Of a DNA stretch of 64,000 nt, positions 21,540 through 57,550 are shown one piece after another. The translations under genes and the position numbers were made by a program. Each line of letters starts with the position of its first letter. Positions within the stretch are counted from its first letter, which is position 1. The DNA is from Solirubrobacterales bacterium (GTDB lineage Bacteria; Actinomycetota; Thermoleophilia; Solirubrobacterales; 70-9). The stretch covers positions 19,522 through 83,521 of the forward strand of contig DASPWW010000028.1 in NCBI GenBank assembly GCA_035637595.1, written 5' to 3'. The notes beneath the pieces are model-generated. The model did not search any database. It saw only the letters and a list, made by a program, of their open reading frames with translations, and had not been told where the DNA came from.

Positions 21540-23762
21540 CTACTGGGGGTCGACATCGACGCTCAGCGCGCTCGCTCGCAGCGCGCGCGCGGTCGCCAGC
21601 CCCTCGATCGCCTCGCGAACCGCGGTCACGATCGCGCCGCGGTCGGCGGCCTTGACCAGAAGCTGGCGGCGGTGGCGTCCGCGGACGCGAAACCTCGGCG
21701 CCGGGCCGAGCAGCTCGGCCCCGGCGGACAGCGACGGCGCGAGCGCCGCATGGATGCGGCGGGCGTCGCCCTCGACCCCCGCCGGGTCGACCCCGGCGAC
21801 CTCGATCCGGACGAGGTGCGAGAAGGGTGGATAGCTCAGCCGGCGGCGGCGCTCGAGCTCGGCGGCGACGAAGCCGGCCGCGTCGTGGCTTGCCGCGGCG
21901 CGGATCGCGTCGGCGCCCGGGGCCAGGGTCTGGACCAGGACGCGCCCCCCCGCATCCCCCCTTCCGCTTCGGCCGGCGAGCTGGGAGACGAGCGCGAAGG
22001 TGCGCTCCTCGGCGCGGAAGTCGGGGAATCGAAGCGTCGCATCGGCATCGAGCACCACGCTCAGCGAGACGTCGGCGAAATCGTGGCCCTTGGCGACCAT
22101 CTGGGTCCCGACCAGAACCCCCGCCGGCGCCCGCTGGAAGGCGGCAAGGATGTCGAGGTGCGAGTCCGCCGGCGCCGCGCTGTCGGAGTCGAGCCGGAAG
22201 ACGGGTAGCGGGTGTATGAGGCGGGCGATCAGGTCCTCGACGCGCTCGGTCCCCGCCCCGGCGCGCGCCAGGGTCACCGATCCGCATTCGGGACAGGCGT
22301 CCGGAGCCTGCTCGGCGTGGCCGCAGTGATGGCAGACCAGGCGCCCGTCGCGTCTATGGATGACGAGCGAGACGTCACACGACGGGCAGCCCCATGAATG
22401 CCCGCACGAACGGCACGAGAGGTGGGGCGACCAGCCGCGGCGGTTGAGCAGCACGATCGCCTTGCCGCGCCCGCTGCGCAGCCCCTCGAGCGCTTCGGTC
22501 GTCCTGGCGTGAAGCGGGCCGCCGCGCCGATCGGCGCCGCGCATGTCGAGGACCTCGACCGCCGGCATGGCGCGCCCGTCGACCCGGTCCGGGAGCTCCA
22601 ACCGCTCGAGCTCGATCCAGCTCTCGGGCCGCGGCGTCGCCGTGCCGGCGACCACGACCGCGCCGCACTCGGCGGCGCGGCGGCGAGCGACGTGGCGTGC
22701 GTCGTAGCGCGGGTCGCCCTCCTGCTTGTAGCCGGAATCGTGCTCCTCGTCGATGACGAGCAGCCCGAGATCGCGCACCGGGGCGAAGACCGCGGACCGG
22801 GGTCCGACGCAGACCCGCGCCTCACCCGAGCGCAGCCGCCGCCACTCGTCATAGCGGGTGCCCGCCCCGAGCCGGGAGTGAAGCAGCGCCACCGTGTCTC
22901 CGAAGCGCTCCCGGAAGCGGGTCACCGTCTGGGGGGTGAGCGCGATCTCGGGCACGAGGACGATGACGCCGCGCCCGCGTGCGATCGCCGCCTCGGCGGC
23001 CGCCAGGTAGACCTCGGTCTTGCCGGAGCCGGTCACGCCATGGAGCAGGAAGCGACGGCTGCCGGCGTCCGGTTCGCCGAGCGCCGCCGCGATCGTCCGC
23101 GCGGCGCGAGCCTGGTCCGCTGTCAAGGTGACGTCGCGCGGGCGCTCCCCGATCGACCGCATGCTCGGGCGCCGGCGCGACTCGGACTCGACGAGCCGCA
23201 CCAGGCCCCGCTGCTTGAGCCGCCGCAGCGTTGCGCGGTCGGCGCCGCACGCCGCGGCGAGCTGCGCCGCAGCGAGGCCGCTCCCTTCGCCGCTTCTCGA
23301 CTCCCGGGCGGCGGCGAGCGCGTCGAGCACGGCGCGCTGTCGCGAGCCCAGCCGTGCGCCGTCGTCCAATGCCTCGCGCCCGTCCACTGTCAGCTCGGCG
23401 CGCAGCTCGACCCGGGGCCGGGTGCGCCGCCCGCTCGAACCGGTGCCCGTTCCGGGCGGCAGGACGAGCTCCAGCCCCCGCGCCGGGGTCGAGCAGTACT
23501 CGCGACCAACCCAGAGGCCGAGTCGCACGAGCTCCGCCGGCACACCCGCCTCCAACGCCTCGATCGGCTCGGCGAGGCGCCCGGGCGGAAGCTCGCTGCG
23601 ATCGGCGAGCTCGACCACCACGCCGAGCACGCGGCGACGCCCGAACGGCACCAGCAGCACGCTGCCGACTCCCACGCCCTCCATCTCGGCGGGGAGCCTG
23701 TAGTCGAACGGCCCGCGCAGCGCACGGGCGGTCGTCAGGGGCTCGACCTTCGCGATCGCCAT
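21540..23762 (-). CDS. priA: Primosomal protein N' (replication restart helicase PriA)
   Basis: ORF 21540..23930 trimmed to ATG 23762 (MAIAKVEPLTTARALRGPFDY). It has GVTGSGKTEVY, DEEHD and the Cys-rich zinc module CRSCGHSWGCPSCD..CHHCGH..CPECGS. Confidence 0.92.
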   Translation of the reverse strand: MAIAKVEPLTTARALRGPFDYRLPAEMEGVGVGSVLLVPFGRRRVLGVVVELADRSELPPGRLAEPIEALEAGVPAELVRLGLWVGREYCSTPARGLELVLPPGTGTGSSGRRTRPRVELRAELTVDGREALDDGARLGSRQRAVLDALAAARESRSGEGSGLAAAQLAAACGADRATLRRLKQRGLVRLVESESRRRPSMRSIGERPRDVTLTADQARAARTIAAALGEPDAGSRRFLLHGVTGSGKTEVYLAAAEAAIARGRGVIVLVPEIALTPQTVTRFRERFGDTVALLHSRLGAGTRYDEWRRLRSGEARVCVGPRSAVFAPVRDLGLLVIDEEHDSGYKQEGDPRYDARHVARRRAAECGAVVVAGTATPRPESWIELERLELPDRVDGRAMPAVEVLDMRGADRRGGPLHARTTEALEGLRSGRGKAIVLLNRRGWSPHLSCRSCGHSWGCPSCDVSLVIHRRDGRLVCHHCGHAEQAPDACPECGSVTLARAGAGTERVEDLIARLIHPLPVFRLDSDSAAPADSHLDILAAFQRAPAGVLVGTQMVAKGHDFADVSLSVVLDADATLRFPDFRAEERTFALVSQLAGRSGRGDAGGRVLVQTLAPGADAIRAAASHDAAGFVAAELERRRRLSYPPFSHLVRIEVAGVDPAGVEGDARRIHAALAPSLSAGAELLGPAPRFRVRGRHRRQLLVKAADRGAIVTAVREAIEGLATARALRASALSVDVDPQ

Positions 23763-23775
23763 CCCGCCAAGGTAG

Positions 23776-25530
23776 GTGCGGCGGCGGACGCCGGGTGGGC
23801 GTATGCTCACTTGCAGGGGGAACTTGATCCTCAGCCTCGGCCTCAGGCAACGACAGCGCTTTGCCCGCTCATCACTGCTGGCGATCGTCGCTGCGCTGAG
23901 TCTCCCCGCCGGCGCGTCAGCCGCTGACACCTACGTGGACCGCGCGATCGGCGACGACAGCAATCCTTGCACCAGCCCCGCCGCGCCCTGCCAGAACATC
24001 GGCGGCGCCACGGGAGGAATCGCCAAGGCCGGCGCGGGCGACACCGTCCACGTCGCAGACCCGGCGGGGCCGCAGACCTATGCCGAGACGCTCACCCTCG
24101 ACAACGGCAAGTCCCTGGTCGCCGAGAGCCCCGACCCAACCGAGACGATCATCGACAACGGAGCCACCGCCTCGCCGGCCGTGACGGTGACCGGCACCAC
24201 GGGCCTGCTGCGAGGATTCACCATCCGCTCCCAGCACCAGGCCGTCAGCCTCCAGTCCGGCGCGACGATCACCGGCAACGTCTTCGACAGCTCGACCCTG
24301 CCGGGCGGCCCCGACAACGCTGACGTCAACGTCACCTCCGGGGCGGGCTCTCCCACAATCACGGGCAACGCCTTCAGCGATTCGAGCTCCGACGACCAGA
24401 CAGCCCTGTCGTCAGTCGCGACAGGGTCTCTCGTAGTCACGCAGAACTCGTTCAGCGGATTCCTCCGCGCCGTGAGCGTCGCCTCTTCGTCCCCGACCAC
24501 GGCCACGATCTCCCAGAACGTGATCACGGCTACGCACGGCACCGCCTTCGCCGGCGTCGGGATCAGGGTCGGTCAGGGCATAACGGCGACGGTGACCGGA
24601 AACTCCCTGTTCGCCGCGGGAACCGGCTCGACCACAGGGATCGGGGTGTTCCAGGGTTCCCTGTCGCCCAACGCCGGGGCAAGCCTGAGACGCAACGTGA
24701 TCATCGGCCACACCTTCGGGGTCAACATCGGGAGCACCCTCGGCGCAGTGACACTGCAGGGCGACCTGGTCGCCAAGGCCACCGACAGCGGCATCACGGC
24801 GTTCGACGTCCTGGGGGCCGGTGGCGGCGACTTCACGGCGATCAACGTCACGTCGATCGACAGCGCCGTGTACGACATCAACCTCGGTAACGGGGCGGAC
24901 GCGACACTCGACTCGATCATCGTCGGCGCCGGGGGCCTCAACCCCGCCATCAACGATCCCGCCACCGGCACCTGCTCGATCAGCTTCTCGCGCGGCGACG
25001 GGAACGGCGACTGCGCCACCGGCTTCGTCACGACCGCCAACCCGATGTTCGTCGACCCCGCGGCCAACGATTACCACCTTCAAGCCGCCTCGCCGATGAT
25101 CGACGCCGGCGACCCCGCCGACCCCGGCGGGGCGTTGGACCTCGACGGCGGCGCCCGAGCGCTCGACGGCGACTGCGACGGGACTGCCCGCCGGGACATC
25201 GGCGCCGACGAATTCGTGCCGAACTGCCCTGAGCCTCCGTCCAACGGCGGCTCCGGCGACATCGACCCGCCCGAGACGACGATCACGAAGCGGCCCAAGG
25301 ACAAGACCAAGAAGAAGTCCGCGACGTTCGAGTTCAGCTCCGACGAGCCGGGCTCGAGCTTCCAGTGCAGCCTCGACGACGGTCCGTTTCAGCCCTGCAG
25401 CTCGCCCGACACGCTGAAGGTCAAGAAGGGCAAGCACTCCTTCGAGGTCCGGGCCACCGACGCGGCGGGCAACGCGGACCCGACTCCCGCCGCCGACGCC
25501 TGGAAGGTGAAGAAGAAAAAGAACAAGTAG
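23776..25530 (+). CDS. Secreted right-handed beta-helix (PbH1-repeat) protein with the lysine-rich Ig-like C-terminal module
   Basis: 584 aa with signal peptide ..SLLAIVAALSLPAGASAADT. Repeats ITGNVF / ITGNAF / VTQNSF / ISQNVI / VTGNSL are followed by the cap NPMFVDPAANDYHLQAASPMIDAGD..DIGADEF. Tail is PKDKTKKKSATFEFSS..WKVKKKKNK. Confidence 0.88.
   Translation: MRRRTPGGRMLTCRGNLILSLGLRQRQRFARSSLLAIVAALSLPAGASAADTYVDRAIGDDSNPCTSPAAPCQNIGGATGGIAKAGAGDTVHVADPAGPQTYAETLTLDNGKSLVAESPDPTETIIDNGATASPAVTVTGTTGLLRGFTIRSQHQAVSLQSGATITGNVFDSSTLPGGPDNADVNVTSGAGSPTITGNAFSDSSSDDQTALSSVATGSLVVTQNSFSGFLRAVSVASSSPTTATISQNVITATHGTAFAGVGIRVGQGITATVTGNSLFAAGTGSTTGIGVFQGSLSPNAGASLRRNVIIGHTFGVNIGSTLGAVTLQGDLVAKATDSGITAFDVLGAGGGDFTAINVTSIDSAVYDINLGNGADATLDSIIVGAGGLNPAINDPATGTCSISFSRGDGNGDCATGFVTTANPMFVDPAANDYHLQAASPMIDAGDPADPGGALDLDGGARALDGDCDGTARRDIGADEFVPNCPEPPSNGGSGDIDPPETTITKRPKDKTKKKSATFEFSSDEPGSSFQCSLDDGPFQPCSSPDTLKVKKGKHSFEVRATDAAGNADPTPAADAWKVKKKKNK
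25288..25410 (+). repeat. Copy A of a near-identical 123-nt DNA segment inside the lysine-rich C-terminal module
   Basis: Aligned by eye to 28042-28164. I count 6 mismatches in 123 nt, while the rest of the two genes is unrelated. Confidence 0.85.
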
Positions 25531-26130: not shown

Positions 26131-26235
26131 GCAGACGTATTGACTTGCCAGCCCCCACGGCCGCGTTCAGGTTCGTAGGGAGCGGGCCGAGCCGATCGTC
26201 GCAACCCCGCGCGAAGTAGGGGTATCTTCGACGCT

Positions 26236-28287
26236 GTGGGGAGTTGGGATAGACCACGGGTGTTGGGGCTTGTCGCGTTCCTGCTCGCGGTCCTGGGCGG
26301 CACGACGGACGCGGCAGCCGTGGTGCCAGACCCGACGTTCGGCACCGGCGGCATCGTCACGACGCCGATCGGTCCGACGGCAGGCGACGAGGACGCTGCC
26401 TACGCGATGGCGATCGAGCCGAGCAGCGGCAAGATCGTGCTCGCCGGTACGTCCGAGGGCGGCGATGAGTTCGCGGTCGCCCGCTACAACGCCAACGGCA
26501 GTCTCGACACGAGCTTCAGCACGGACGGCATCGTCACAACCGACATCTCGGGGCCGATCGCGATGACCTCCGGCGCCGACGAAGGGCGCGCCGTCGTCAT
26601 CCAGCCGGACGGCAAGATCGTCGTCGCGGGGTTCGCCGATGCGATTCCCAGCAGCGACGGGCTCGGGGCCGACTTCGCCCTGGTCCGCTACAACGCCGAC
26701 GGCAGCCTCGACACGAACGCCGATGCCGATCCCGGCACCGACTTCGGGGGCGACGGCAAGGTCACGACCACAGTCGGCGCCTTCGACTCCGCCGCCTACG
26801 CGCTCGCCCGCCAGGCTGACGGCAAGCTCGTCGCCGCGGGCCAGAGCTCGGCGGGGAGTCACTTCGACTTCGCGCTCGTCCGCTACAACGGCGACGGCAC
26901 CCTGGACACGAACGCCGACGCTGATCCCGGTACGCACTTCGACACCGACGGCGAGGCGACAACGGACTTCGCCGGGGTGTCCGCCAACGACGCAGCGAAC
27001 GCCGTCGCGATCCAGTCCGACGGCAAGATCGTGGCTGCCGGGTACTCGAACACCGGGGCGAGCGGCGTGAGCGATGACTTCGCGCTCGCGCGCTACAACG
27101 CGAACGGGAGCCTCGACACGAACACGGACGCCGATCCCACCGTCGATTTCGGCGGCGACGGCAAGGTGACCACGCCGATCAGTACCCAGACGACCTTCAA
27201 CCAGGATCGGGCCAACGCGCTCGCGATCCAGACCAACGGCAAGTTGATCGCAGCCGGTTCGTCCCAGGTGACGCCGACAGAAGAGTTCGCCCTGGCGCGC
27301 TACAACGCCGACGGCAGCCTTGACACGGACGCCGATGCCGATCCCGGCACCGATTTCAGCGGTGACGGGATCGTGACCACGAACGTCAGCCCGATCGGCA
27401 ACACCAGCGTCGCCTACGGCGTCGCGATCCAGGCCGACGGCAAGCTCGTCGCGGCCGGTCGGGCCACCAACAGCGATTGCTGCACCTTCCACCGGGACTT
27501 CGGGCTGGCCCGCTACAACCCGAACGGCAGCCTCGACCCGACGTTCAGCGACGACGGCATCGCGACCACCGCGGTCGCAGCCGATCCGTTCGTCGACCTC
27601 GCGCGCACCGTCGCGATCCAGGTGGACGGCAAGATCGTCGCCGGGGGCTACGCGGACGTGGGCACGAGCTTCGAGGACTTCGACTTCGCGCTCGTCCGCT
27701 ACATCGACGTGCCCCAGACGACGATCACCTCGGGTCCCACGGGCACTACCGGCAACACGACGCCGACGTTCGCCTTCGCCTCCGACGAGCCAGGGTCGAC
27801 CTTCCAGTGCGCTCTCGACGGCGCTCCGCTCGGCGCGTGCTCGGGCCCCGGCGACACGCACACCCCCTCGAGCCCGCTCGCCGACGGCCCGCATCTGTTC
27901 ACGGTGCGAGCAACCGATACCGACGGCAATGCCGACCCGACCCCCGCAACCCGGGCGTTCACCGTCGACACGCAGGGCCCCGTCATCCCCCCGCCGGGGA
28001 GCTCGACGAGCGACGCCGATCCGCCCGACACCACAATCACCAAGCGGCCCAAGGACAAGACCAGGAAGAAGTCCGCGACGTTCGAGTTCAGCTCCGACGA
28101 GCCGGGTTCGAGCTTCGAGTGCAGCCTCGACGGCGGTCCGTTTCAGCCCTGCGGCTCGCCGGACGTGGTGAAGGTCAAGAAAGGCAAGCATCACTTCGAG
28201 GTCCGCGCCACCGACGCGGCCGGCAACGTCGAGCCGACGCCGGCCACGGACAGCTGGACCGTGAAGAAAAAGAAGAAGAAGCGGTAG
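26236..28287 (+). CDS. Secreted seven-repeat beta-propeller (delta-60-type repeats) protein with two C-terminal Ig-like modules, the last one lysine-rich
   Basis: 683 aa with a signal peptide. About seven units of DGKIV(A/V)AG...F(A)L(A/V)RYN(A/P)(D/N)GSLD. An ordinary Ig-like module sits at 27712-27969 and the Lys-rich module at 28018-28287 (tail WTVKKKKKKR). Confidence 0.88.
   Translation: MGSWDRPRVLGLVAFLLAVLGGTTDAAAVVPDPTFGTGGIVTTPIGPTAGDEDAAYAMAIEPSSGKIVLAGTSEGGDEFAVARYNANGSLDTSFSTDGIVTTDISGPIAMTSGADEGRAVVIQPDGKIVVAGFADAIPSSDGLGADFALVRYNADGSLDTNADADPGTDFGGDGKVTTTVGAFDSAAYALARQADGKLVAAGQSSAGSHFDFALVRYNGDGTLDTNADADPGTHFDTDGEATTDFAGVSANDAANAVAIQSDGKIVAAGYSNTGASGVSDDFALARYNANGSLDTNTDADPTVDFGGDGKVTTPISTQTTFNQDRANALAIQTNGKLIAAGSSQVTPTEEFALARYNADGSLDTDADADPGTDFSGDGIVTTNVSPIGNTSVAYGVAIQADGKLVAAGRATNSDCCTFHRDFGLARYNPNGSLDPTFSDDGIATTAVAADPFVDLARTVAIQVDGKIVAGGYADVGTSFEDFDFALVRYIDVPQTTITSGPTGTTGNTTPTFAFASDEPGSTFQCALDGAPLGACSGPGDTHTPSSPLADGPHLFTVRATDTDGNADPTPATRAFTVDTQGPVIPPPGSSTSDADPPDTTITKRPKDKTRKKSATFEFSSDEPGSSFECSLDGGPFQPCGSPDVVKVKKGKHHFEVRATDAAGNVEPTPATDSWTVKKKKKKR
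28042..28164 (+). repeat. Copy B of the near-identical 123-nt DNA segment
   Basis: See 25288-25410. Confidence 0.85.
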
Positions 28288-28291
28288 CCGG

Positions 28292-29551
28292 CTAGGAGAC
28301 CTCGGCCGGCTGCTCGACCTCGAGCTTCGCGGCGCGGCGCAGCGCGGCGGCGCGATCGACGCGCTCCCACGTGAAGTCGTGATCGTCGCGGCCGAAATGG
28401 CCATATGCGGCCGTCTTCTGGTAGATCGGGCGGTGGAGGTCGAGGTCGCGCCGGATCGCCGCCGGTCGAAGGTCGAACTCGTCCTCGATGATCGCCGCGA
28501 TCTCGACATCGGGGATCTTGCCGGTCCCATAGGTCTGGACCATCAGCGAGATCGGATGGGCGACCCCGATCGCGTAGGCGACCTGGACCTCGCAGCGATC
28601 GGCGAGCCCCGCGGCGACGACGTTCTTGGCCACGTAGCGGGCCGCGTAGGCAGCCGAGCGGTCGACCTTCGAGGGATCCTTGCCGGAGAACGCGCCGCCG
28701 CCGTGGCGGGCGGCGCCGCCGTAGGTGTCGACGATGATCTTGCGGCCCGTGAGACCGGCGTCGCCGACCGGCCCGCCGATCACGAAGCGGCCCGTCGGGT
28801 TGACGAAGAAGTGATCCTTCGTGTTGAGCTTGCGCTCGTCGTAGAGCTCCGCCGGGAGGATGGGATGCACGACGTGCTCCCAGAGGTCGGGACGGATCAG
28901 GGTGTCGGCGTCCACCCCGTCCTTGTGCTGAGTCGAGATCAGGACCTTCTCGATCTCGATCGGCCGCCCGCTCTCGTAGCGGACCGTGACCTGCGTCTTG
29001 CCGTCGGGGCGAAGGTACGGCACGACATCGCCGCGTCTGACCTCGGCGAGCCGGTGGGCGAGCTTGTGCGCGAGCGAGATCGGCAGTGGCATCAGCTCCG
29101 GCGTCTCGCGCGTCGCGTAGCCGAACATCATCCCCTGGTCGCCGGCCCCCGCGAGGTCGAGCTCATCGTCGTCGGCGGGATCGGTTCGCGCCTCCAGCGC
29201 CTTGTCGACGCCCTGGGCGATGTCAGGTGACTGCTTGTCGATCGCGTTTATGACCGCACAGGAGTCGGCGGAGAAGCCGAGGTCCGCGTCCGTGTAGCCG
29301 ATCTTGCGGATCGTCCGGCGCGCCACGTCGGGGATGTCCACGTAGGTCTCGGTCGTGATCTCGCCCGACACGACCACGAGCCCGGTGTTGACCAGGGTCT
29401 CGCACGCCACCCGGCCGTTGGGGTCATCAGCCATCACCGCGTCGAGGACGCCGTCGGAGATCTGATCGCAGATCTTGTCGGGGTGGCCCTCCGTGACGGA
29501 TTCGGAGGTGAACAGGTGCTCGTTCTCGCCTAGCTTCTCGATCTCGCTCAT
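28292..29551 (-). CDS. metK: S-adenosylmethionine synthetase
   Basis: 419 aa with [30 protein letters not shown] and [19 protein letters not shown]. Confidence 0.95.
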
Positions 29552-34074: not shown

Positions 34075-35313
34075 CTAGCCGACGAGCTGGAGGCGCTGCT
34101 CGCCGACGGTGATGCCGCCGGCCTCGGCGGTCTGCACCCGTGCCGTCGTCAGCAGGATCCGGTGGCTGCGCCGCAGCTCCCGCTTGCCGAACCGGGTGAG
34201 CTTCACCTTGACGACCGCGGTCTCGCCCGCGATCACGAGGAACCCGGTGGCCTTGCCGACCTCGCGTCCGTTCCCGAACAGCGCCAGCTCGCCGGCGCAG
34301 GAGTCCACCTCGAGCGCCGGGCACTCGACGCTGACCCTCGCCTTGCCATGACGCACGGACGCGCTCTCCACGGCCACCAGGGCGCCCCTTCGCTCGCAGT
34401 TGGGCTCGACGACGTCCAGCGGGTCGGCGAGGACCGTGTCCGTGCCCATGCCGCAGTCGAGCCGGTCGTGATAGCCGTCCGGTGAGGCGCCGCCGTTGAG
34501 GACGTCGTCGCCCTCCTCGCCCGATAGCTCATCGTTGCCCGCGAGGCCGACGAGCCGGTCGTCTCCGAGGTCGCCGAAGAACTCGTTGGCGCCGGCGTCG
34601 CCGGTCAGCGAGTCGTCGGACTCGGTGCCGAAGACGCGCTCGACCCGCATCAGGTTGTCGCCCTCGCCGGGAGTGCCATCGTTCGGCTGATCGTCGAAGC
34701 TGACCTCGACTCCGGTCAGGTAGCCGCCGTAGTCCACCTCGTCGATGCCCGAGCCCCCGTCGAGACGATCCGCTCCGGTCGCTGCGGGCCCGCTCGTGCC
34801 GTCGAGGAAGTCGTCGCCGGCCCCGCCGTCGTGATCGTCGTCGCCGAGGCTGTCGTCGATGAAGTCGTCGCCGGGCCCGGACCTCACGACGTCGTTGCCG
34901 TCTCCCGGCTCGACCTGGTTTTTGACCTCGAGGTTCTGATTGGTATAGCTGTCGTTTGCCTCCATCAGGTCCACGGCCACGATCCTCACCGGGGCGCCGC
35001 CGGGATCGAACGGGCAGGTGACCGTGGTCGCGTTCGGCGCCGAGCACTCGACTGCCGCGGTGGTAATCCCGCCCGGCCCCGTGTCGGTGATCGTGATCGT
35101 TCCGCCGGCAACCGAGACGTCGATCAGGTCGACGTCGCTCTCGCCGGTGATAACCACCACGCTTCCGAAGCCCGTTATGGAGACGTAGTCGACATCGGTC
35201 GCGGCCGAAGCCGGCGCGGCGCCCAACGCCACGACGAGCCCGGCGGCCGCGGCCAGCGCGAGCGCCAGCCGTCCCGGGCAACGGGCGCTCGCCGCTGTCA
35301 TCCTCGGCCGCAT
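34075..35313 (-). CDS. Secreted calcium-binding repeat (RTX/hemolysin-type GGxGxD) protein, paralog A
   Basis: 412 aa with signal peptide ..ALGAAPASAATD. It has DGGAGDDFLDG, GGSGIDEVD, GDAGANEFFGDLGDDRLVGLAGNDELSGEEGDDVLNGG and LDCGMGTDTV, then a C-terminal Ig-like domain. Confidence 0.8.
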   Translation of the reverse strand: MRPRMTAASARCPGRLALALAAAAGLVVALGAAPASAATDVDYVSITGFGSVVVITGESDVDLIDVSVAGGTITITDTGPGGITTAAVECSAPNATTVTCPFDPGGAPVRIVAVDLMEANDSYTNQNLEVKNQVEPGDGNDVVRSGPGDDFIDDSLGDDDHDGGAGDDFLDGTSGPAATGADRLDGGSGIDEVDYGGYLTGVEVSFDDQPNDGTPGEGDNLMRVERVFGTESDDSLTGDAGANEFFGDLGDDRLVGLAGNDELSGEEGDDVLNGGASPDGYHDRLDCGMGTDTVLADPLDVVEPNCERRGALVAVESASVRHGKARVSVECPALEVDSCAGELALFGNGREVGKATGFLVIAGETAVVKVKLTRFGKRELRRSHRILLTTARVQTAEAGGITVGEQRLQLVG

Positions 35314-35319
35314 CCCGCG

Positions 35320-36510
35320 CTAGCCGATGAGCAGGACGCGGGCCTCGGTGATGCTCGACCCGCCCGGCTCGACCGTCTCGGCCTGAGCGGTCACGAACAG
35401 CGATCCATGGCTGCGGTGAAGCGCCCTGCGTCCCGCGCGCGTGAGCTTGAGCTGTCCGTTGCGCGTCTCGCCGGCGCCGACCTCGAAGCTCCCGTTCTTG
35501 CTCAGGACCGTGCCGTTCGACAGCAGCGACAGCGTCCCGGCGCACGTGGCGCCCTCCTCGGGTGGGCACGACACGAGGACCTTGACCTTACCCCTGCGCC
35601 GCAGCTTGGCCGTCTCGCCGGTGACGCTAGCGCCGCGGCGCTCGCAGCCGACCTCGACGACGTCCTGAGCGTCCGACAGCGCGAGGTCTGCGCCGAGGCC
35701 GCAGTCGAGACGGTCGCGCGCTCCATCGGGCGAGTCGCCGCCGTTCAGCGTGTCGTCACCGTCCTCGCCATCGAGGTCGTCGGGGCCTCCCCGGCCGACG
35801 ATCAGGTCGTCACCGTTGTCTCCGAAGAGCCGGTTGGCGTTGGCGTCGCCGACGAGCACGTCGTCGAACAACGTCCCGTCCACCGACTCGACGCTGATCA
35901 AGTTGTCCGCCTCACCGGCGGGGCCGTCGTTCGGCTGGTCGTCGAGACTGGCGTTGACCGGCGCAAAGGAGTTCCCGAAGAACGCCTCGTCATCTCCCGC
36001 CCCACCGTTCATCTCGTCGTCGCCGGGGTCCCAGTAGAGCTGGTCGGCGCCGGGGCCCGTGTCGAGGACGTCGTTGCCCACGTCCCCCTGGGCGAAGTCG
36101 TCACCCGGACCCGTCTCGAGGACATCGTTGCCCGTGCCCCCAATGGCCTGGGTGATCACGTCGAGGTTCTGGTTGAGGAACCGGTCGTTGTCGCCCTGCA
36201 TAACCGCGGCCAGGAACACGACCGGCCCGGAGCCGGGTGGGTTGAGCGGGCAGGTGACCGTTTGGGGGTCGAGCGTCGCGCACGGTGGCGTGGTGGTCGT
36301 GATGCCGCCGGGCCCCTGGTCGGTGATCGTGATCGTGCCGCCGGCCTCCGAGACGCCGACGGCGTCGACGTCGTTCTCCCCGATGATGACCAGCTGGCTG
36401 AACTGCGGGGAGGTGCCCAGCTGGACCTGTGTCGCGGCGGAGGCGGAGCCGGCGCCCGCCGTGACGACGAGCGCGAAGCTCAATGCAAGTCCTCCCAGGC
36501 CCCGCTTCAT
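35320..36510 (-). CDS. Secreted calcium-binding repeat (RTX-type) protein, paralog B
   Basis: ORF 35320..36558 trimmed to ATG 36510 (MKRGLGGLALSFALVVTAGAGSASAATQ). Same layout as paralog A. Its stop is 6 nt before the paralog A start. Confidence 0.8.
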   Translation of the reverse strand: MKRGLGGLALSFALVVTAGAGSASAATQVQLGTSPQFSQLVIIGENDVDAVGVSEAGGTITITDQGPGGITTTTPPCATLDPQTVTCPLNPPGSGPVVFLAAVMQGDNDRFLNQNLDVITQAIGGTGNDVLETGPGDDFAQGDVGNDVLDTGPGADQLYWDPGDDEMNGGAGDDEAFFGNSFAPVNASLDDQPNDGPAGEADNLISVESVDGTLFDDVLVGDANANRLFGDNGDDLIVGRGGPDDLDGEDGDDTLNGGDSPDGARDRLDCGLGADLALSDAQDVVEVGCERRGASVTGETAKLRRRGKVKVLVSCPPEEGATCAGTLSLLSNGTVLSKNGSFEVGAGETRNGQLKLTRAGRRALHRSHGSLFVTAQAETVEPGGSSITEARVLLIG

Positions 36511-36554
36511 CGGCGGAGAGTATGCACACATGTCGGGGACGGCGCGCCGCTGGC

Positions 36555-37898
36555 TCAACCGGATGCGAGCTGCGCCAGCTCCGACTCGAAGCGCGGGTAG
36601 CTGACCGACACGGAGTCGAAGCCCCGCACCTCGACGCCCTCCCGCGAGGCCAGCCCGGCGACCGCGCCGAGCATCGCCATGCGGTGATCGCCGCGGGTGT
36701 CGAGCGCTCCGCCGCGCAAGCCGCCGGTACCGGTCACGGCGAATCCATCGGGCAGCGCCTCGATCTCGGCGCCGATCCCGCGCAGGCCGTCGACGACGGC
36801 CGCGATCCGGTCCGACTCCTTGTGGCGCAGCTCCTGCGCGCCGGTCACCACCGTGTCACCGTCGGCGAAGCAGCCGAGCAGGGCGACGAGCGGCAGCTCG
36901 TCGATCGCCAGCGGGACCTCGGCGGGCCCGACGCGAGTCGCCGTCAATCCCCCATGGCGGGCGCGAACCGTGCCGCGCGGCTCGTTGCCCGCCGCGGACT
37001 CGTCATCGACCTCCAGCAGCCCGCCCATCCTGTTGGCGATCCCGAGGAACCCGCTGCGCGTGGGGTTCAGGCCCACTTCGTCGATGCGCAGGTCGCTGCC
37101 GTGGACCAGCAGGGCCGCGGCGATGAGGAACGCCGCAGAGGACAGGTCGCCCGGGATCGCGATCGAGCCGAGCTCGATCGACCTTGTCCCACGCACCGTG
37201 ATCCGGCGCCGCTGTGGACTGCGAGCCGTGACGAGCGAGGACACGCTCTCGACCTCCAGCGACGCGCCCGCGGCGCGCAGCATGCGCTCCGTGTGATCGC
37301 GTGTCGGCGCCGGCTCCGTGACCCGCGTCTCGCCGTCGGCGAGCAGGCCGGCGAGCAGGACGCATGACTTGACCTGGGCGCTGGCGATCGGGAGCTCGTA
37401 GGAGATGCCGCTCAGGGCCGCGCCCTCGACGCGCAGCGGCGGCAGGCGCTCGTCGCGGCATTCCAGCCGGGCGCCCATCTCGCGCAACGGCTGCGCCACC
37501 CGGTCGACCGGGCGGCGGCGAATCGACTCGTCGCCGTCGAGGGTCCACGCGCCACGGCCCTGGCCGGCGAGCCACCCCGGCAGGACCCGCAGCAGCGTTC
37601 CGGCGTTGCCGACGTCGATCCCCGAAGCTCCGTCGAAGCGCGCGCCCCGAAGCCCCACCCCGCGAATCTTCAGGTCGAGGCGCCCGGGCCCGGCGACCGC
37701 CTCCTCGATGTCGGCCCCCAGGCCCCCGACCGCCACCAGGGTTGATCGCGTGTCGTGGGAGTCGAGGTAGCTCTCGACGCGGCACTCGCCCTCCCCCATC
37801 GCCGCGACGATCGCGGCGCGGTGCGAGATCGACTTGTCGGGCGGAGGTGTGAGCTCTCCCCGGAGCGGGCCCGAGGGCTCGAACCTGACGGCGCTCAT
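36555..37898 (-). CDS. aroA: 3-phosphoshikimate 1-carboxyvinyltransferase (EPSP synthase)
   Basis: ORF 36555..37985 trimmed to ATG 37898 (ATGA overlap with the tyrA stop). It has PPDKSISHRAAIVAA and other EPSPS blocks. Confidence 0.92.
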   Translation of the reverse strand: MSAVRFEPSGPLRGELTPPPDKSISHRAAIVAAMGEGECRVESYLDSHDTRSTLVAVGGLGADIEEAVAGPGRLDLKIRGVGLRGARFDGASGIDVGNAGTLLRVLPGWLAGQGRGAWTLDGDESIRRRPVDRVAQPLREMGARLECRDERLPPLRVEGAALSGISYELPIASAQVKSCVLLAGLLADGETRVTEPAPTRDHTERMLRAAGASLEVESVSSLVTARSPQRRRITVRGTRSIELGSIAIPGDLSSAAFLIAAALLVHGSDLRIDEVGLNPTRSGFLGIANRMGGLLEVDDESAAGNEPRGTVRARHGGLTATRVGPAEVPLAIDELPLVALLGCFADGDTVVTGAQELRHKESDRIAAVVDGLRGIGAEIEALPDGFAVTGTGGLRGGALDTRGDHRMAMLGAVAGLASREGVEVRGFDSVSVSYPRFESELAQLASG

Positions 37899-40314: not shown

Positions 40315-41547
40315 CTACTTGTGCTTGCGCTTCACGCGCCAGGTCCGCGAGTCGGGCGTCGGATCGACGTTGCCGGAGGCGTCGATCGAAAAGACGCGGA
40401 AGACGTGCTTGCCGATCCCGACGCGGTATCCCTTGGGCGACTCGCACGGCTTGTACGGCACGTCGTCGACGCTGCACATCAGGATCGCCCCCGCGGGCTC
40501 GCTGGTGCCGAACTTGAACTTTGCCAGGTGGTGCTTGGAGCGCTTCTCGGGGCCCTTGAGGATCTTGGTCTCGGGCGGATTGACGTCGGGCGGCGGCGGG
40601 CCGACGACGTACTCGTCGGCGCCGATGTCCACGCCGTAGCCCTGGACGCGGGGCTCGCCGTCTACGTCCTCGCTGCCGACGCCGGACCAATACCCCCCGC
40701 GCTCGATCGTCGGCGACTCCGGACCCTCGTGGAAGTCCCCGGCGGCCGCGTTGACAAAGAGCGGCGGGTCGGTCTGGTTGTAGGCCGTTCCCGGTGCCGT
40801 TGCAAAGCTGTTCGCTCCGACGAGGCTGAGCGTCGCGAAGTTGCTGTGGTCGAGGTCGACGTTGGCGCCCGAGGCCGCGTTGCTGGTCGCCTCGACGTCG
40901 ACCCCCGCACCCTTCGCGATCACGTTGACGGCGCGCAGGTCCGCCAGCCCGCCGCCGGACGCCTCGGCCTCGATGCCCCGCGCCCCGGCGCCCTCGCCAA
41001 TGGCGGTGACGTTGCGCAGGACGGACTGCTCGAACGCTGAGCCGACCGTCATCCCGGCGGCGCTGCCGGCGGTTCCCGTCGACCAGCAGATGCTGTCGCG
41101 CAGCGTCGCGCCGCGCACCTGGCAGGCGAACTGCGAGCTCCCGGTCTGGGCTACCACCTGCTCCGCGATGCCGGCGTCCAGGAAGAGCGCGTCGCCGATT
41201 CCGACGTGGACTATGTGCAGGCGGCGGACAAGCGCACCCGCGCCGGTCACGCTGACGCCCGTCGGCGCCGACGACACGACGAGCGGCGACGGTGCCCCCG
41301 CCTGGCCGTGGACCAGGATCGAGGCGGACACGTCGAGCTGGTCGGTCTCGCCGTAGCTGCCCGGCAGCACCACGACCTCGTCCCCGCCGACGGCCGACTC
41401 GACCGCGACCTGGAGATCGCAGGGCGCGTTGGTTGAGCAGGCGACCCCGGACCCACCGGGCGACGCGTAGCGGACATCGGCGGACGCCGAGGCGGAGGCG
41501 GCGAGCGACACCGTCGCGATCGCCGCGAGGGCGGCCCCTGCCTTCAT
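40315..41547 (-). CDS. Secreted beta-helix-like protein with a divergent copy of the basic Ig-like C-terminal module
   Basis: 410 aa with signal peptide MKAGAALAAIATVSLAASASASA and cap motif PPLFVNAAAGDFHEGPESPTIERG..DIGADEYV. Tail is PPETKILKGPEKRSKHHLAKFKFGTSEP..CSVDD..GKHVFRV..DASGNVDPTP..WRVKRKHK. Confidence 0.85.
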   Translation of the reverse strand: MKAGAALAAIATVSLAASASASADVRYASPGGSGVACSTNAPCDLQVAVESAVGGDEVVVLPGSYGETDQLDVSASILVHGQAGAPSPLVVSSAPTGVSVTGAGALVRRLHIVHVGIGDALFLDAGIAEQVVAQTGSSQFACQVRGATLRDSICWSTGTAGSAAGMTVGSAFEQSVLRNVTAIGEGAGARGIEAEASGGGLADLRAVNVIAKGAGVDVEATSNAASGANVDLDHSNFATLSLVGANSFATAPGTAYNQTDPPLFVNAAAGDFHEGPESPTIERGGYWSGVGSEDVDGEPRVQGYGVDIGADEYVVGPPPPDVNPPETKILKGPEKRSKHHLAKFKFGTSEPAGAILMCSVDDVPYKPCESPKGYRVGIGKHVFRVFSIDASGNVDPTPDSRTWRVKRKHK

Positions 41548-44317: not shown

Positions 44318-46273
44318 ATGGGGAAGCCAGTCAACGTCAGTCGCTCGGCGACGGCGCTCGGCTTCGCCCTTCTCGTCCTCGCGGTGGCGGCGCCGGCGGG
44401 CGCCCAGGATCCCGCGCCAGTCCCCCGCCCCACCCCGGTCGACGCCAACGGAATCGATCAGCCGCTCCAGGACGGCTGCCAGCGCAACCCGGTGGGGCTG
44501 CTGACCTTCACCTCGCCTGAGTGGGTGCTCGTCTACTCACACGAGGACTTCAACCCGGATCCGACGCGCGCCCGGGTGATGGAGGGCACGGCCGACGTCG
44601 CCGACGTCGCGGGCGGAGACCTGCCCGAGGGCCACGACTTCTACGACTTCAACATCGACGTGGCGCTCGATCCCGCCTACCAGTACCTCGCCGACACCCG
44701 ATCCAGCAAGCTGCACGTCGAGTGGGAGAGCGGCACGTTGCCCTTCTACGCGTGGGCAACCGCCGGCGACCGGCTCAAGAACTGGGGGACGTGGATCTGG
44801 GACTGCGGCCACTGGAGCAGGGGCGCGGACTTCGACTTCGGGTTCGACCCCGACCACCCAGAGATCCCTCAGGCGATCGGGCACGACACCGACTACTTCC
44901 TCCCGGGCACCCAGGAGACCGAGAAGGAGGCAACCGGCGGAGAGGCGACGGAGTTCCACCCGATGCAGGGCGTCGTGGTCACCCGCAACAACCCCTACGT
45001 CCCACAGGTCGGCGAGACCCAGGCCGACGCCTTCATGTCGAGCGCCGGGACCCCGGCGCGCGCCAACTCCACCTGCGCGCACGACACCCAACCACCGGTG
45101 CTGTCCGAGGACGTCCCTCCGGCGGGCTATCCGCCGTCGTGGACGGCGTGCGCCGAGAACCCGCTCAACGAGTGGCAACCGGTCAACGACCGCGACTACA
45201 CGTTCTTCATACCGGTGCCGCCGAAGCCGGCGCCCGGCGCGCACCTGCGCTTTCGCACGCAGGGCCAGAACGCGCCGGGCAGCAGCCCCGACGAGCAGTA
45301 CCGGGTACGACACGACGGTGTCGAGGTCACGGTGCCGTTCAAGGACTTCGGCTCGCAGGGCGATGCCCTCGCCTTCGCGAAGAGCTTCTTCGTCGGCTGG
45401 ACGGGCCTGACCCAGTACCGACCCGCCCACCTCCAGGTCGATCTGAACTCGGTGACGGTCCACAATTCCCTCGACAGCTTCCCGCAGCCCGGCACGTCGA
45501 TCGACTTCCCGCCAGGCGAGTACGGGATGTACCTCGACGTCAACGGTGATTGGAGCTATCTCAACGACTTCGCCCCGGGTCTCGGGGCCGTCAACAACGG
45601 GGACAGCTTCGACCTCGACCAGACGCTCGACATCTACGTCGGCGCGGACCAGCCGGTCGAGCTGCTGATGGACACACGCGAGTGCGACCTGCCGAAGATC
45701 GCGCCCTGCACGACGACCCCCGAGGTTGCCGAGGACAACGACTCTCCCGGCGGAGCGCTCGACAGCTTCGAATCGGCCGAGGCGGCGGTCGGGGACCACA
45801 CGATGGTCTCGGACAATGGCGCCTGGGAGATGAGCTACACGATCCGCCAGCTGACCGCCGCGACGCTCGGCCCGCCGGTTCCGGGTGAGCCCTGCTTCGA
45901 CACGCTGACCCCACGCTCGAAGATCCGCCGCAAAGGGCTGCATCCCCGCAAGCACAGCCTCAGCCTGCGAGGTCGCGCCAGCGACCGGCTGTGCTTCGGC
46001 CCGGGTGACGTCTCCGACGTCCAGGTCGCGGTCGCCAGGCGGGCCGGCAAGGGCCAGTGCCGCTTCCTCGAGCCGGGCGGCGAGTTCGGCGAGGCGCGGA
46101 GCTGCGAACTGCGCAGCTTCCTGCCCGCCGAGGGGACGAAGCGCTGGCGCTTCCAGACCGCCTGGGAGGGAAAGCCCGGCCGCTACATGCTGTTCTCCCA
46201 GGCCACCGACGAGGTCGGCAACCTCGAGACCGAGTCGAGCGGCCGCAACCGGGCCCGCTTCCGGATCCGCTGA
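44318..46273 (+). CDS. Large secreted protein of unknown function with a C-terminal Ig-like domain
   Basis: 651 aa with signal peptide ..ALGFALLVLAVAAPAGAQD and W/C-rich blocks (WGTWIWDCGHW). The C-terminus is ..VQVAVARRAGKGQCRF..GRYMLFSQATDEVGNLE. I do not recognise the N-terminal 500 aa. Confidence 0.75.
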   Translation: MGKPVNVSRSATALGFALLVLAVAAPAGAQDPAPVPRPTPVDANGIDQPLQDGCQRNPVGLLTFTSPEWVLVYSHEDFNPDPTRARVMEGTADVADVAGGDLPEGHDFYDFNIDVALDPAYQYLADTRSSKLHVEWESGTLPFYAWATAGDRLKNWGTWIWDCGHWSRGADFDFGFDPDHPEIPQAIGHDTDYFLPGTQETEKEATGGEATEFHPMQGVVVTRNNPYVPQVGETQADAFMSSAGTPARANSTCAHDTQPPVLSEDVPPAGYPPSWTACAENPLNEWQPVNDRDYTFFIPVPPKPAPGAHLRFRTQGQNAPGSSPDEQYRVRHDGVEVTVPFKDFGSQGDALAFAKSFFVGWTGLTQYRPAHLQVDLNSVTVHNSLDSFPQPGTSIDFPPGEYGMYLDVNGDWSYLNDFAPGLGAVNNGDSFDLDQTLDIYVGADQPVELLMDTRECDLPKIAPCTTTPEVAEDNDSPGGALDSFESAEAAVGDHTMVSDNGAWEMSYTIRQLTAATLGPPVPGEPCFDTLTPRSKIRRKGLHPRKHSLSLRGRASDRLCFGPGDVSDVQVAVARRAGKGQCRFLEPGGEFGEARSCELRSFLPAEGTKRWRFQTAWEGKPGRYMLFSQATDEVGNLETESSGRNRARFRIR

Positions 46274-47633: not shown

Positions 47634-47748
47634 CGCCCTTAACGGTATCTGCAGCCTCCGACGAGGCGATCGGCACCTCCCCGAAACGCCGCGCCAACGG
47701 GTGCGGATCGCCGTAGGCTTGTGGGATCAGCAAGGGCCGAAGCGACCG

Positions 47749-48744
47749 ATGAGAGGGAAATCCCAGACGCGGGCCCAGCCTCGCCCTGGCGCGATCGTCG
47801 CGCTCCTGACCGCGCTCGTCTTCGCACTTGCCGTCGCGGGATGCGGCGACGGTGGCGCGGACAACGAGGGCGGCGGCGAGAGGCGCGCCAACCTGATCGA
47901 GGAGAACGCCGACAACAACGGCGTCGAGATCACGGTCGGCTCAAAGAACTTCACCGAGCAGTACATCCTCGGCGAGATCTACGCCCAGGCCCTCGACGCC
48001 GCCGGCTACGACGTCTCGACCCACCTCAACCTCGGCTCCGAGCAGGTCGCCCTGCGGGCGCTGGAGGAAGGTGAGATCGACGCGTATCCCGAGTACACCT
48101 CGACCGCGCTGACGTCATTCTTCGACTTCGGGCCCGACGAAGTGCCGGCCGATCCCCAGCAGGCGTTCGAGGAGTCCCAGGACGACTTCGAGAAGCTTGG
48201 CCTGGTCGCATATCCGCCGACGCCGTTCTCGAGCGCAAACGCGGTCGGGCTGCTGACCGAGACCGCGGACGAGCTCGGCGTGAGCACGATCTCCGACCTC
48301 GAGGGCAAGTCGCAGGACCTGACGCTGTACGGCGCTCCCGAGTGTCGCCAGCGGATCGACTGCCTCGTCGGGCTCGAACGTGATTACGGGCTCGAGTTCA
48401 AGCAGTTCGTCCCCGTCGACATCGCGCGGCGCTACGAGGTGCTCGATAGGGACGAAGCCGATCTCTCGATCCTGTTCACCACCGACGCGCAGCTGTTCGT
48501 CTCCGACAACTACGTGATCCTCGAGGACGACAAGGACGTGCTCCCGGCCGGGAACGTGCTCTTCGTCGCTCGTCGGCAGACGGCCGACGAGGCGGGCCCG
48601 GGCTTCGGGAACACGATCGCAAGCGTTCAGGAGAACCTCACGCTCGAGGTGATGCAGGAGCTCAACGCGCGCGTCGACGTCGACCACGAGAAGCCCGCGG
48701 AGGTCGCCAGGCGATACCTCGTGGAGTTCGGATACGTCCGGTAA
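47749..48744 (+). CDS. Glycine betaine/osmoprotectant ABC-transporter substrate-binding lipoprotein (OpuBC/ProX-type)
   Basis: ORF 47701..48744 trimmed to ATG 47749 (..LLTALVFALAVAGCGDGG lipobox). It has ITVGSKNFTEQYILGEIYAQAL..IDAYPEYT. Confidence 0.82.
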   Translation: MRGKSQTRAQPRPGAIVALLTALVFALAVAGCGDGGADNEGGGERRANLIEENADNNGVEITVGSKNFTEQYILGEIYAQALDAAGYDVSTHLNLGSEQVALRALEEGEIDAYPEYTSTALTSFFDFGPDEVPADPQQAFEESQDDFEKLGLVAYPPTPFSSANAVGLLTETADELGVSTISDLEGKSQDLTLYGAPECRQRIDCLVGLERDYGLEFKQFVPVDIARRYEVLDRDEADLSILFTTDAQLFVSDNYVILEDDKDVLPAGNVLFVARRQTADEAGPGFGNTIASVQENLTLEVMQELNARVDVDHEKPAEVARRYLVEFGYVR

Positions 48745-57442: not shown

Positions 57443-57550
57443 GCGCAGCAGCTGCGAGCTGGAGGGACCGCCGCCGTACGCGGCCCGCAAGATCGCTGCC
57501 GTCATGGTTTGCCGGCAGGGAAGCGGCGGTAACCTCAAGAATTGCGAGCT

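Follow-up and report, generated by a model that had tools for sequence, protein, structure and literature searches.

Modules and genes in the window

We analysed a stretch of 64,000 nucleotides (nt) from a Solirubrobacterales bacterium (contig DASPWW010000028.1; GC content 70.7%), referred to below as the window, and within it a lysine-rich, immunoglobulin (Ig)-like module of about 90 amino acids (aa) which closes six of its genes (A to F). An earlier reading made from the DNA alone (the sequence-only reading) had located the six modules and an ordinary copy of the same fold. It had also described all six proteins as having Sec-type signal peptides and differing N-terminal cargo but no LPXTG motif, C-terminal hydrophobic helix or lipobox, and had proposed that the module serves targeting or anchoring. 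A profile hidden Markov model (HMM) was built from the six modules and searched against the six-frame translation of the window. It recovers exactly those six, with domain expect (E) values from 1e-44 to 1e-48, and the translations agree. The ordinary copy in gene E is the sole further match and the next best hit has E = 1.3. Every module is the last 88-90 aa of its open reading frame (ORF), with the stop codon directly after it. The modules and their genes are listed below.

164-436, minus strand: module A, 15 Lys (HMM 9.4e-47)
164-1015, minus strand: gene A, with signal peptide, all-beta cargo, EPDxDxDGxGDExQD linker and module; matches P0271, a hypothetical protein of a Solirubrobacterales metagenome-assembled genome (MAG)
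1012-1284, minus strand: module B, 13 Lys (HMM 1.2e-48)
1012-1866, minus strand: gene B, paralogue of A and C; its stop overlaps the start of A (ATGA)
1877-2149, minus strand: module C, 17 Lys (HMM 1.4e-47)
1877-2758, minus strand: gene C, paralogue of A and B
23776-25530, plus strand: gene D (start uncertain), with signal peptide, beta-helix-like cargo and Lys-type module
25264-25530, plus strand: module D, 16 Lys (HMM 4.3e-48)
26236-28287, plus strand: gene E, with signal peptide, seven delta-60 repeats (propeller), an ordinary Ig copy and a Lys-type Ig copy
27712-27969, plus strand: ordinary copy of gene E, 0 Lys (HMM 6.5e-22), directly upstream of the Lys-type copy
28018-28287, plus strand: module E (HMM domain E 1.7e-48), with the tail KKKKKKR followed by the stop
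40315-40581, minus strand: module F, a divergent Lys/Arg-type copy with 12 Lys and 6 Arg (HMM 7.6e-44)
40315-41547, minus strand: gene F, with signal peptide, beta-helix-like cargo and module

The consensus of the modules is PPETTITK.PKDKTKKK.ATFEF.S.EPGS.FECSLDG..F..C.SP...KVKKGKH.F.VRA.DAAGN.D..PA.D.WKVKKKKK-stop. Each contains 12-17 Lys and 2-6 Arg; in the remaining genes of the window (16,757 aa), which serve as background, Lys makes up 1.78% and Arg 9.75% of the residues. Against this background, 89 aa would hold 12 or more Lys with a binomial probability of 7e-8, and 15 or more with one of 6e-11. The sequence-only reading had pointed to (AAG)n tracts as conspicuous and selected. Selection for Lys holds, but there is nothing unusual in the codon: outside the six genes 288 Lys codons are AAG and 11 are AAA, and since AAG is the usual Lys codon window-wide, the tracts reflect selection for the residue. 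An artefact of repeat tracts or codon usage was ruled out, both by this usage and by the conservation of the Lys positions, column by column, in 131 sequences.

Signal-peptide-like N-termini were found in all six proteins with a crude heuristic scorer. None of the six contains an LPXTG motif (LP.[TSA]G), a lipobox or a twin-arginine motif, and the lack of the last rules out twin-arginine (Tat) export. A C-terminal hydrophobic segment is also absent from them, the maximum 15-aa hydropathy within the last 40 aa being 0.82.

The description of the cargo as differing between genes broadly holds. Proteins A, B and C are paralogues (49% identical), and the AlphaFold2 (AF2) model of full-length protein B (predicted local distance difference test score, pLDDT, 90.2) consists of an all-beta sandwich cargo, the EPDxDxDGxGDExQD linker and the Ig module. 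The cargo of gene E scores 310 bits with TIGR02608 and 198 bits with DUF5122 and has seven [AV]RY[NI] repeats. Weak beta-helix-type matches, all of them below cut-off, are found for gene D (NosD, DUF5123, and choice_anch_Q with 20.9 bits) and for gene F (choice_anch_Q with 20.5 bits, and DUF5123), where the cut-off of the choice-of-anchor Q model (NCBIfam NF041518) is 25 bits. The linker of A, B and C resembles the calcium-binding motif of thrombospondin type 3 repeats.

Genes C, B and A follow one another on the minus strand in head-to-tail order, with a gap of 10 nt between C and B and an ATGA overlap of B and A at 1012-1015, and they probably form one operon; the most likely start of gene A is the ATG at 1015 within that overlap. 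Module F has 41-48% identity with the remaining five. Modules D and E share 87% of their DNA and 84% of their aa, despite unrelated cargo in the two neighbouring genes, and because of this the module appears to move, or to be homogenised, between genes; the likeness suggests a recent exchange or gene conversion. The ordinary and the Lys-type copy within gene E are 51% identical. The body of protein E has an isoelectric point (pI) of 4.1 and a net charge of -53, and the pI of its last 90 aa is 9.5.

Concerning gene starts, the longest ORF of gene D overlaps that of priA (21540-23930, minus strand) by about 155 nt (23776-23930) on the opposite strand. An in-frame ATG lies at 23803 in gene D, whose signal peptide starts some 30 codons into the ORF, and gene D, priA or both probably start later than listed. 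Long Leu-rich ORFs on the strand opposite the module genes (e.g. 26167-28530, minus strand) were ruled out, as the plus frame has strong delta-60 and Big_13 matches and the shared module end.

Fold and relation to named domains

The AF2 model of the module, made with 68 aligned sequences, is a seven-strand sandwich (pLDDT 90.7) with strands at residues 5-9, 19-26, 32-37, 43-45, 49-52, 56-65 and 76-82. The poly-Lys tail, made up of the last seven residues, is without secondary structure (pLDDT 80-84). Its Foldseek neighbours are PKD, Y_Y_Y and FN3-like domains, with TM scores of 0.6-0.75 and E values of about 1e-3.

The Pfam and NCBIfam searches of the six proteins were considered down to E values of up to 1. 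With the Big_13 model (Pfam PF19077, gathering threshold 27 bits) the Lys-type copies of B and C score 13.9 and 14.8 bits, and no match is seen for A, D and F. Gene E reaches 36.8 bits in two matched stretches, the best of which (aa 503-579) covers the ordinary copy. With the OmpL47-type model (NCBIfam NF047446, cut-off 40 bits) proteins A to E score 17.0-37.5 bits and F has no match. Whether the Lys-rich subtype already had a name was a question left by the sequence-only reading, and no Pfam or NCBIfam model names it. The six-module profile matches 31,350 representative proteins at E up to 1e-3, many of them with 10-45 tandem copies. This exhaustive search is swamped by giant proteins made of ordinary copies and was rejected as a guide to the Lys subtype; it shows only how common the fold is.

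The module is a distinctive subtype of a common Big_13/PKD-like Ig repeat, and neither a new fold nor a new superfamily. With the Big_13, OmpL47-type, PKD and FN3 repeats it shares the fold and clear homology, the framework identity being 53%. Ordinary Big_13-type copies have next to no Lys and occur internally or in tandem, whereas the Lys-type copy always comes last and carries three Lys segments and a polybasic tail. The Lys-type copies also stay below the Pfam and NCBIfam cut-offs, unlike the ordinary copy of gene E on Big_13.

Terminal position and recoded surface

For the comparison of copies we pooled 644 full-length domains from 79 genome loci and 240 metagenome proteins, and defined a Lys-type copy as one with at least six Lys. 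No internal copy out of 454 is of this type, and 445 of them contain 0-2 Lys; among the terminal copies 131 of 167 are Lys-type. All 14 basic copies in the genome loci are followed by at most 17 residues. The claim that the module is always C-terminal is thus borne out, and the same holds for the three segments in which Lys had been seen to replace other residues in gene E: the same three are conserved in the 131 non-redundant Lys-type copies. They comprise columns 9, 12, 14 and 16-19 in the A-B loop, columns 52, 54, 55 and 57 in the E-F hairpin, and columns 81 and 83-86 at the end of strand G and in the tail. Lys occupies 30-90% of these columns, and 56-90% of all except columns 9 and 19. In 453 ordinary copies the matching columns up to 83 have 0-1% Lys, and few ordinary copies reach the tail columns 84-86.

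When the basic columns are masked, Lys-type and ordinary copies are 53% identical, and identity within each class is 56-57%. The scaffold is unchanged, and it is the surface that has been recoded to Lys. The recoding favours Lys over Arg by about 5:1 (an estimated 84% Lys among Lys plus Arg), against a window background in which Arg prevails by 5.5:1 (about 15% Lys). The framework Arg63 of the VRA motif stays Arg in Lys-type and ordinary copies alike. Since the strands of a sandwich alternate in direction, residues 10-18, 53-55 and 83-89 would all lie on the pole opposite the N-terminus, farthest from the cargo, a placement that we infer from the topology of the model.

Some tails use Arg or His in place of Lys (KRKRRGSR in locus L006, RRR in L012, His-rich in L003), which points to charge as the common property. 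Extensions of the poly-Lys tail that are rich in His or in Gly and His also occur, for instance ...KRKKHHKRHHRRHHKHHHHKHH and ...KHKHKHRGHHHHPHHHHHHHH (L003, 1750-3318; P0414, P0394 and P0405), and hint at a charge that may depend on pH, or at metal binding.

Distribution, cargo and genomic setting

The genome-locus scan used one genome per species and kept the best 80 hits. Among these, 14 terminal copies are basic: 12 in Solirubrobacterales/Thermoleophilia MAGs, one in a Rubrobacteraceae MAG and one in an unclassified MAG. Ordinary copies only are found in loci of Gaiellaceae, Nocardioides, Micromonosporaceae, Acidimicrobiia, Chloroflexia, Rokuibacteriota and Myxococcota. The taxonomic boundary of the Lys-type module drawn from these hits is provisional. 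When proteins were searched by word index with the 89-aa profile, no hit was longer than 158 aa and most were fragments; the genome loci and the searches with the cargo alone supplied the full-length context.

In the relatives, the cargo includes a subtilisin-type S8 protease, a proprotein-convertase P-domain with Calx-beta, NHL repeats, beta-helices, delta-60 repeats and the sandwich of the A/B/C type. Often the final Lys-type copy is separated from the cargo by one to four ordinary copies, as is also the case in gene E. The expectation that the module follows a signal peptide holds among relatives as well: a signal-peptide-like N-terminus is present in 58 of 77 module-bearing relatives, and most of the other 19 are truncated or have a called start that falls within the signal peptide. 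Apparent stand-alone modules of 90 aa without a signal peptide (P0026, P0011), which would have spoken against an anchoring role, were rejected as artefacts of frameshifted long-read contigs, with cargo fragments lying upstream in other frames. The long-read metagenome contigs L083 and L084 have many frameshifts; SecA is split into three genes and an NHL cargo is fragmented.

Beyond the left edge of the window, a further 20 kb of the same contig (locus L080) contain five more genes ending in the module, which brings the total to 11 copies in about 80 kb. The module genes are scattered among housekeeping genes: recG, the rib operon, rpe, rsmB, def, priA, metK, der, cmk and aroA, as well as genes for DAHP synthase, ScpA, Ku, LigD and the glycine-cleavage system. 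In this flank the gene for a membrane methyltransferase of the ICMT/PEMT family adjoins gene A (L080, 4933-7176). Beside it lies the gene of a 539-aa choice-of-anchor Q beta-helix protein (35.9 bits, cut-off 25), which ends in an alternative Lys-rich domain (...VKLTVTVTYTPSGGTSNSKATKVKLKRRH).

Other C-terminal endings follow the ordinary copies in other taxa. In Nocardioides, Ornithinibacter and an unclassified Actinomycetota MAG (L010, L016, L030, L033, L042, L066) a different Arg/Lys-rich terminal domain of 88 aa stands after the last ordinary copy. In Archangium (Myxococcota; L017, L019, L026, L052, L068) the arrays of ordinary copies end in Cys-containing, MYXO-CTERM-like tails. One repeat is paired with different C-terminal endings in different phyla.

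Interchangeable basic C-termini

Searches with the cargo alone extend the finding beyond the Ig fold. Among 120 relatives of the A/B/C cargo, 50 end in the Lys-type module, and the other 70 mostly end in other Lys-rich modules with basic ends. These include two or three other beta domains and a short helical KKCKKK tail, and the following endings were distinguished.

Lys-rich RTX-type repeats (GGKGKDKLKGGPGKDK...)
Domain of the form ...QRKRPKQ...KKKVKKTFEFRAQV...EKVKVKKKK
Domains of the form ...VKLKIKPKGKKK...KVKVKAKVTYTPTGG...K.IRLV
Short tail TGQRAAAIKKCKKK...KKAKKLPV

The relatives of the F cargo show the same picture: 27 of 90 have the Lys-type module, and the rest mostly have other basic beta domains or tails, some of them rich in Arg. 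Because unrelated basic modules replace it on the same cargo, the conserved property is the polycationic C-terminus and not the Ig fold, and the Lys-type Ig module is one of several interchangeable polycationic C-terminal modules in Solirubrobacterales. All comparative predictions of the sequence-only reading came out in favour of the anchoring role that it proposed, which is plausible and has been strengthened, with the refinement that the Ig fold is not an essential part. Its second suggestion, a recognition tag specific to a motif, becomes less likely, since unrelated C-terminal modules substitute for one another.

Nine proteins of the window have a signal peptide that looks cleavable, and in each of them the body is acidic (pI 4.1-4.7) and the last 90 aa are basic (pI 9.1-9.9), in what is a small sample judged by a crude signal-peptide test. 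Six of them are the proteins with the Lys-type Ig module, two are RTX paralogues outside the module family and one has an Arg-rich C-terminal domain. The three proteins that lack the module are as follows.

34075-35313 and 35320-36558, minus strand: two secreted paralogues with RTX repeats (HemolysinCabind matches) and a different basic C-terminal beta domain; body pI 4.1, last 90 aa pI 9.3-9.9
44318-46273, plus strand: secreted protein with an Arg-rich basic C-terminal domain; body pI 4.5, last 90 aa pI 9.7 with 3 Lys and 13 Arg

Just two exported proteins of the window are without a basic C-terminus, and both are anchored by other means: an OpuAC-type binding protein (47701-48744, plus strand), which has the lipobox VAGC, and the protein at 51199-51906 (plus strand), which has an N-terminal transmembrane membrane anchor. 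Polycationic C-termini may be the default for soluble exoproteins in Solirubrobacterales.

Proposed function and alternatives

As with anchoring modules, the Lys-type module is always C-terminal, stands behind a signal peptide, is joined to unrelated cargo and is interchangeable with other anchors. From these features, together with its anatomy and conservation, we infer that it may act as a device for non-covalent, electrostatic retention on a polyanionic component outside the membrane, the best-supported reading, to which we give about even chances. The Ig repeat has had its A-B loop, its E-F hairpin and the last part of strand G recoded, and has gained an unstructured poly-Lys/Arg(/His) tail. 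Sec export and signal-peptide cleavage would come first, and the cationic tip would then bind a polyanion outside the membrane. The binding would be multivalent, through the tip and the flexible tail, and the acidic cargo would stay tethered to the producer, pointing outwards. Candidate ligands are an anionic wall polymer, an acidic exopolysaccharide, extracellular DNA (eDNA) and anionic lipid head groups.

Several points weigh against retention of this kind. The localisation or binding of any member is not described in the literature searched, and no description was found there of the envelope chemistry of Solirubrobacterales, including teichoic and teichuronic acids. The whole proteins are net negative, with -6 to -53 on the cargo and +4 to +9 on the module, so that retention would depend on a local patch. 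Charge alone leaves the preference for Lys over Arg, and the retention of Arg63 as Arg, unexplained. The clustering of the Lys segments at one pole follows from strand topology in a predicted structure.

Adhesion to external anionic material, such as clay or silica, humic matter, acidic plant or microbial polysaccharides or soil eDNA, with either exoenzymes or the cell becoming stuck to it, involves the same physics and draws on the same comparative evidence as retention on the producer. Many relatives come from metagenome assemblies of the Joint Genome Institute (JGI) and the European Nucleotide Archive (ENA). The generic use of basic ends, on all nine soluble exoproteins of the window, fits housekeeping localisation better than substrate targeting, although a self and a non-self ligand are inseparable by sequence evidence. 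We regard adhesion of this kind as unlikely.

A broader version of the interchangeability seen above would be a general display system of Solirubrobacterales, perhaps of Thermoleophilia, in which a polycationic C-terminal label, the default for soluble Sec substrates and not just a passively adhering patch, is read by dedicated chemistry or machinery, for example through Lys-dependent covalent bonds with peptidoglycan or a surface lattice, or through recognition by an apparatus that carries proteins into an outer layer. The Lys-type Ig domain would then be the commonest of several folds, and the system a counterpart of sortase/LPXTG or of the type IX secretion (T9SS) C-terminal domain (CTD). 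Such a system is quite unlikely in our view.

The preference for Lys would be accounted for by covalent attachment, in which epsilon-amines of Lys in the patches or the tail are joined to peptidoglycan or surface proteins by an envelope cross-linking enzyme. In Escherichia coli an L,D-transpeptidase joins the C-terminal Lys of Braun's lipoprotein to meso-diaminopimelic acid, and an L,D-transpeptidase-like or transglutaminase-like enzyme is a conceivable linker here. The share of Lys in the recoded columns, the structural Arg that stays Arg, and a tail that is both unstructured and at the extreme C-terminus all fit this model. However, in some lineages Arg or His predominates in the tail, the final residue of many tails is R, L, N or H and not K, and a single reactive Lys would suffice where 15 are unnecessary. 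Genes for YkuD (L,D-transpeptidase), transglutaminase or sortase are found neither in the window nor in the 20 kb of L080, which is a weak argument since such enzymes need no linkage to their substrates. On balance covalent attachment is improbable.

A sorting or secretion signal read by dedicated machinery, comparable to the T9SS CTD, could direct the proteins into an S-layer, a sheath or an outer membrane and perhaps be removed afterwards. The CTD of T9SS cargo is a beta-sandwich, and the architecture of such cargo is matched here by a Sec signal peptide, diverse cargo and a C-terminal beta-sandwich of about 90 aa which occurs in several types; the shuffling of the module between unrelated genes, as in D and E, would also fit. 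Specific recognition is hard to square with the interchange of several unrelated folds, even of a short helical Lys tail. Moreover, a conserved cleavage motif cannot be seen, none of the NCBIfam models for sorting signals or T9SS CTDs matches at E up to 1, and no candidate machinery lies in the window or L080. This makes a dedicated sorting signal very improbable.

Lastly, the consistency with which a very acidic body is joined to a basic C-terminus would also suit a role without targeting, in which the C-terminus aids folding, solubility or export kinetics as a counter-charge, a chaperone or a brake on release from the Sec channel, but this is the most improbable of the explanations, as +4 to +9 cannot neutralise -6 to -53, the terminal position, the presumed polar placement of the patches, facing away from the cargo, and the conservation of an unstructured tail would all be needless for solubility, and ordinary internal copies in the same proteins do without Lys.

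Comparison with known systems

Non-covalent retention on anionic polymers is well known in Gram-positive walls. The GW modules of InlB and Ami are retained on wall teichoic acid (PMC7155027), CWB2 anchors proteins on the anionic polymer PSII (PMC4973711), and wall-binding modules in general hold varied cargo on anionic wall polymers with no covalent bond (reviewed in PMC5817068). The comparators named for this kind of binding are GW, CWB2, SLH, LysM, WxL and the cationic anchoring domains of Lactobacillus S-layers. Like these, the Lys-type module is a C-terminal or modular addition to Sec-exported proteins; unlike the wall-binding modules of Firmicutes, it has another fold with no sequence relation, consists of a single Ig domain with a poly-Lys tail and not of repeats, and is hosted by Thermoleophilia. 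No Pfam match of the six proteins to LysM, SLH, GW/SH3, CWB1, CWB2, WxL or PG_binding was found at E up to 1, and a 2018 catalogue of surface-display and wall-binding domains in monoderm bacteria contains nothing comparable.

In the T9SS of Bacteroidota, proteins of diverse kinds carry a Sec signal peptide and end in a common domain of about 80-100 aa (PMC4560394, PMC8545088). The logic is shared with the module, whereas the CTDs are not polycationic and belong to another phylum, and no translocon is known for the module. The six proteins, from a host in Solirubrobacterales and not in Bacteroidota, have no NCBIfam match to the Por_Secre_tail or type B CTD models.

The signals of LPXTG/sortase, PEP-CTERM, MYXO-CTERM, GlyGly-CTERM and PGF-CTERM occupy the same C-terminal place on 'choice-of-anchor' proteins and also have basic ends. 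These tripartite signals are peptides of 25-35 aa, whereas the module is a folded domain of 89 aa with neither a signature motif nor a hydrophobic helix. None of the NCBIfam sorting-domain models (PEP-CTERM, MYXO-CTERM, GlyGly-CTERM and others) matches at E up to 1. Of the three parts of a sortase substrate, only the basic tail is present in the six proteins; the LPXTG-like motif and the hydrophobic helix are missing.

Lys-rich tails are known from single proteins of high-GC actinobacteria. The C-terminal domain of HBHA is such a tail and binds a polyanion, heparan sulphate (PMC3293801). The tails of HBHA, Ku and HupB (PAKKA type) are all rich in Lys in genomes that favour Arg, and bind heparan sulphate or DNA electrostatically (PMC3293801, PMC3553676). 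They are disordered, belong to single proteins and have no Sec signal, whereas the module is folded, shuffled and found on many secreted proteins. Neither the module nor poly-Lys tails on exoproteins of Thermoleophilia are described in the literature searched, and Haft's preprint on sorting signals does not mention Thermoleophilia or Solirubrobacterales.

Thermoleophilia are a little-studied class of Actinomycetota, and we found nothing in print on the organisation of their cell surface. If retention is the function, surface-retained proteins could be predicted by a simple rule, namely that a signal peptide comes with an acidic body and with a C-terminal module rich in Lys, covering proteases, propellers and beta-helix proteins alike. 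A fold-independent, charge-based anchor made from the recoded tip of an Ig repeat would then join the catalogue of surface-display devices. Its reach is wider than the sequence-only reading saw, as the module is one of a family of interchangeable polycationic C-termini. As a compact tag of 89 aa that folds well, it is a candidate for surface display or polyanion binding. The use of Lys over Arg in a genome of 71% GC is a puzzle which could reveal a binding preference or a covalent chemistry.

A Lys-rich C-terminus is also seen in a gene of the window outside the secreted proteins. The window Ku (57542-58510, plus strand; Pfam Ku, 186 bits) contains 10.9% Lys overall, and its last 90 aa have 16 Lys and a pI of 10.5. 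Its gene adjoins that of a LigD primase-polymerase (58555-59409, plus strand). The tail resembles the Lys-rich PAKKA tail of Mycobacterium smegmatis Ku, a modulator of DNA binding (PMC3553676).

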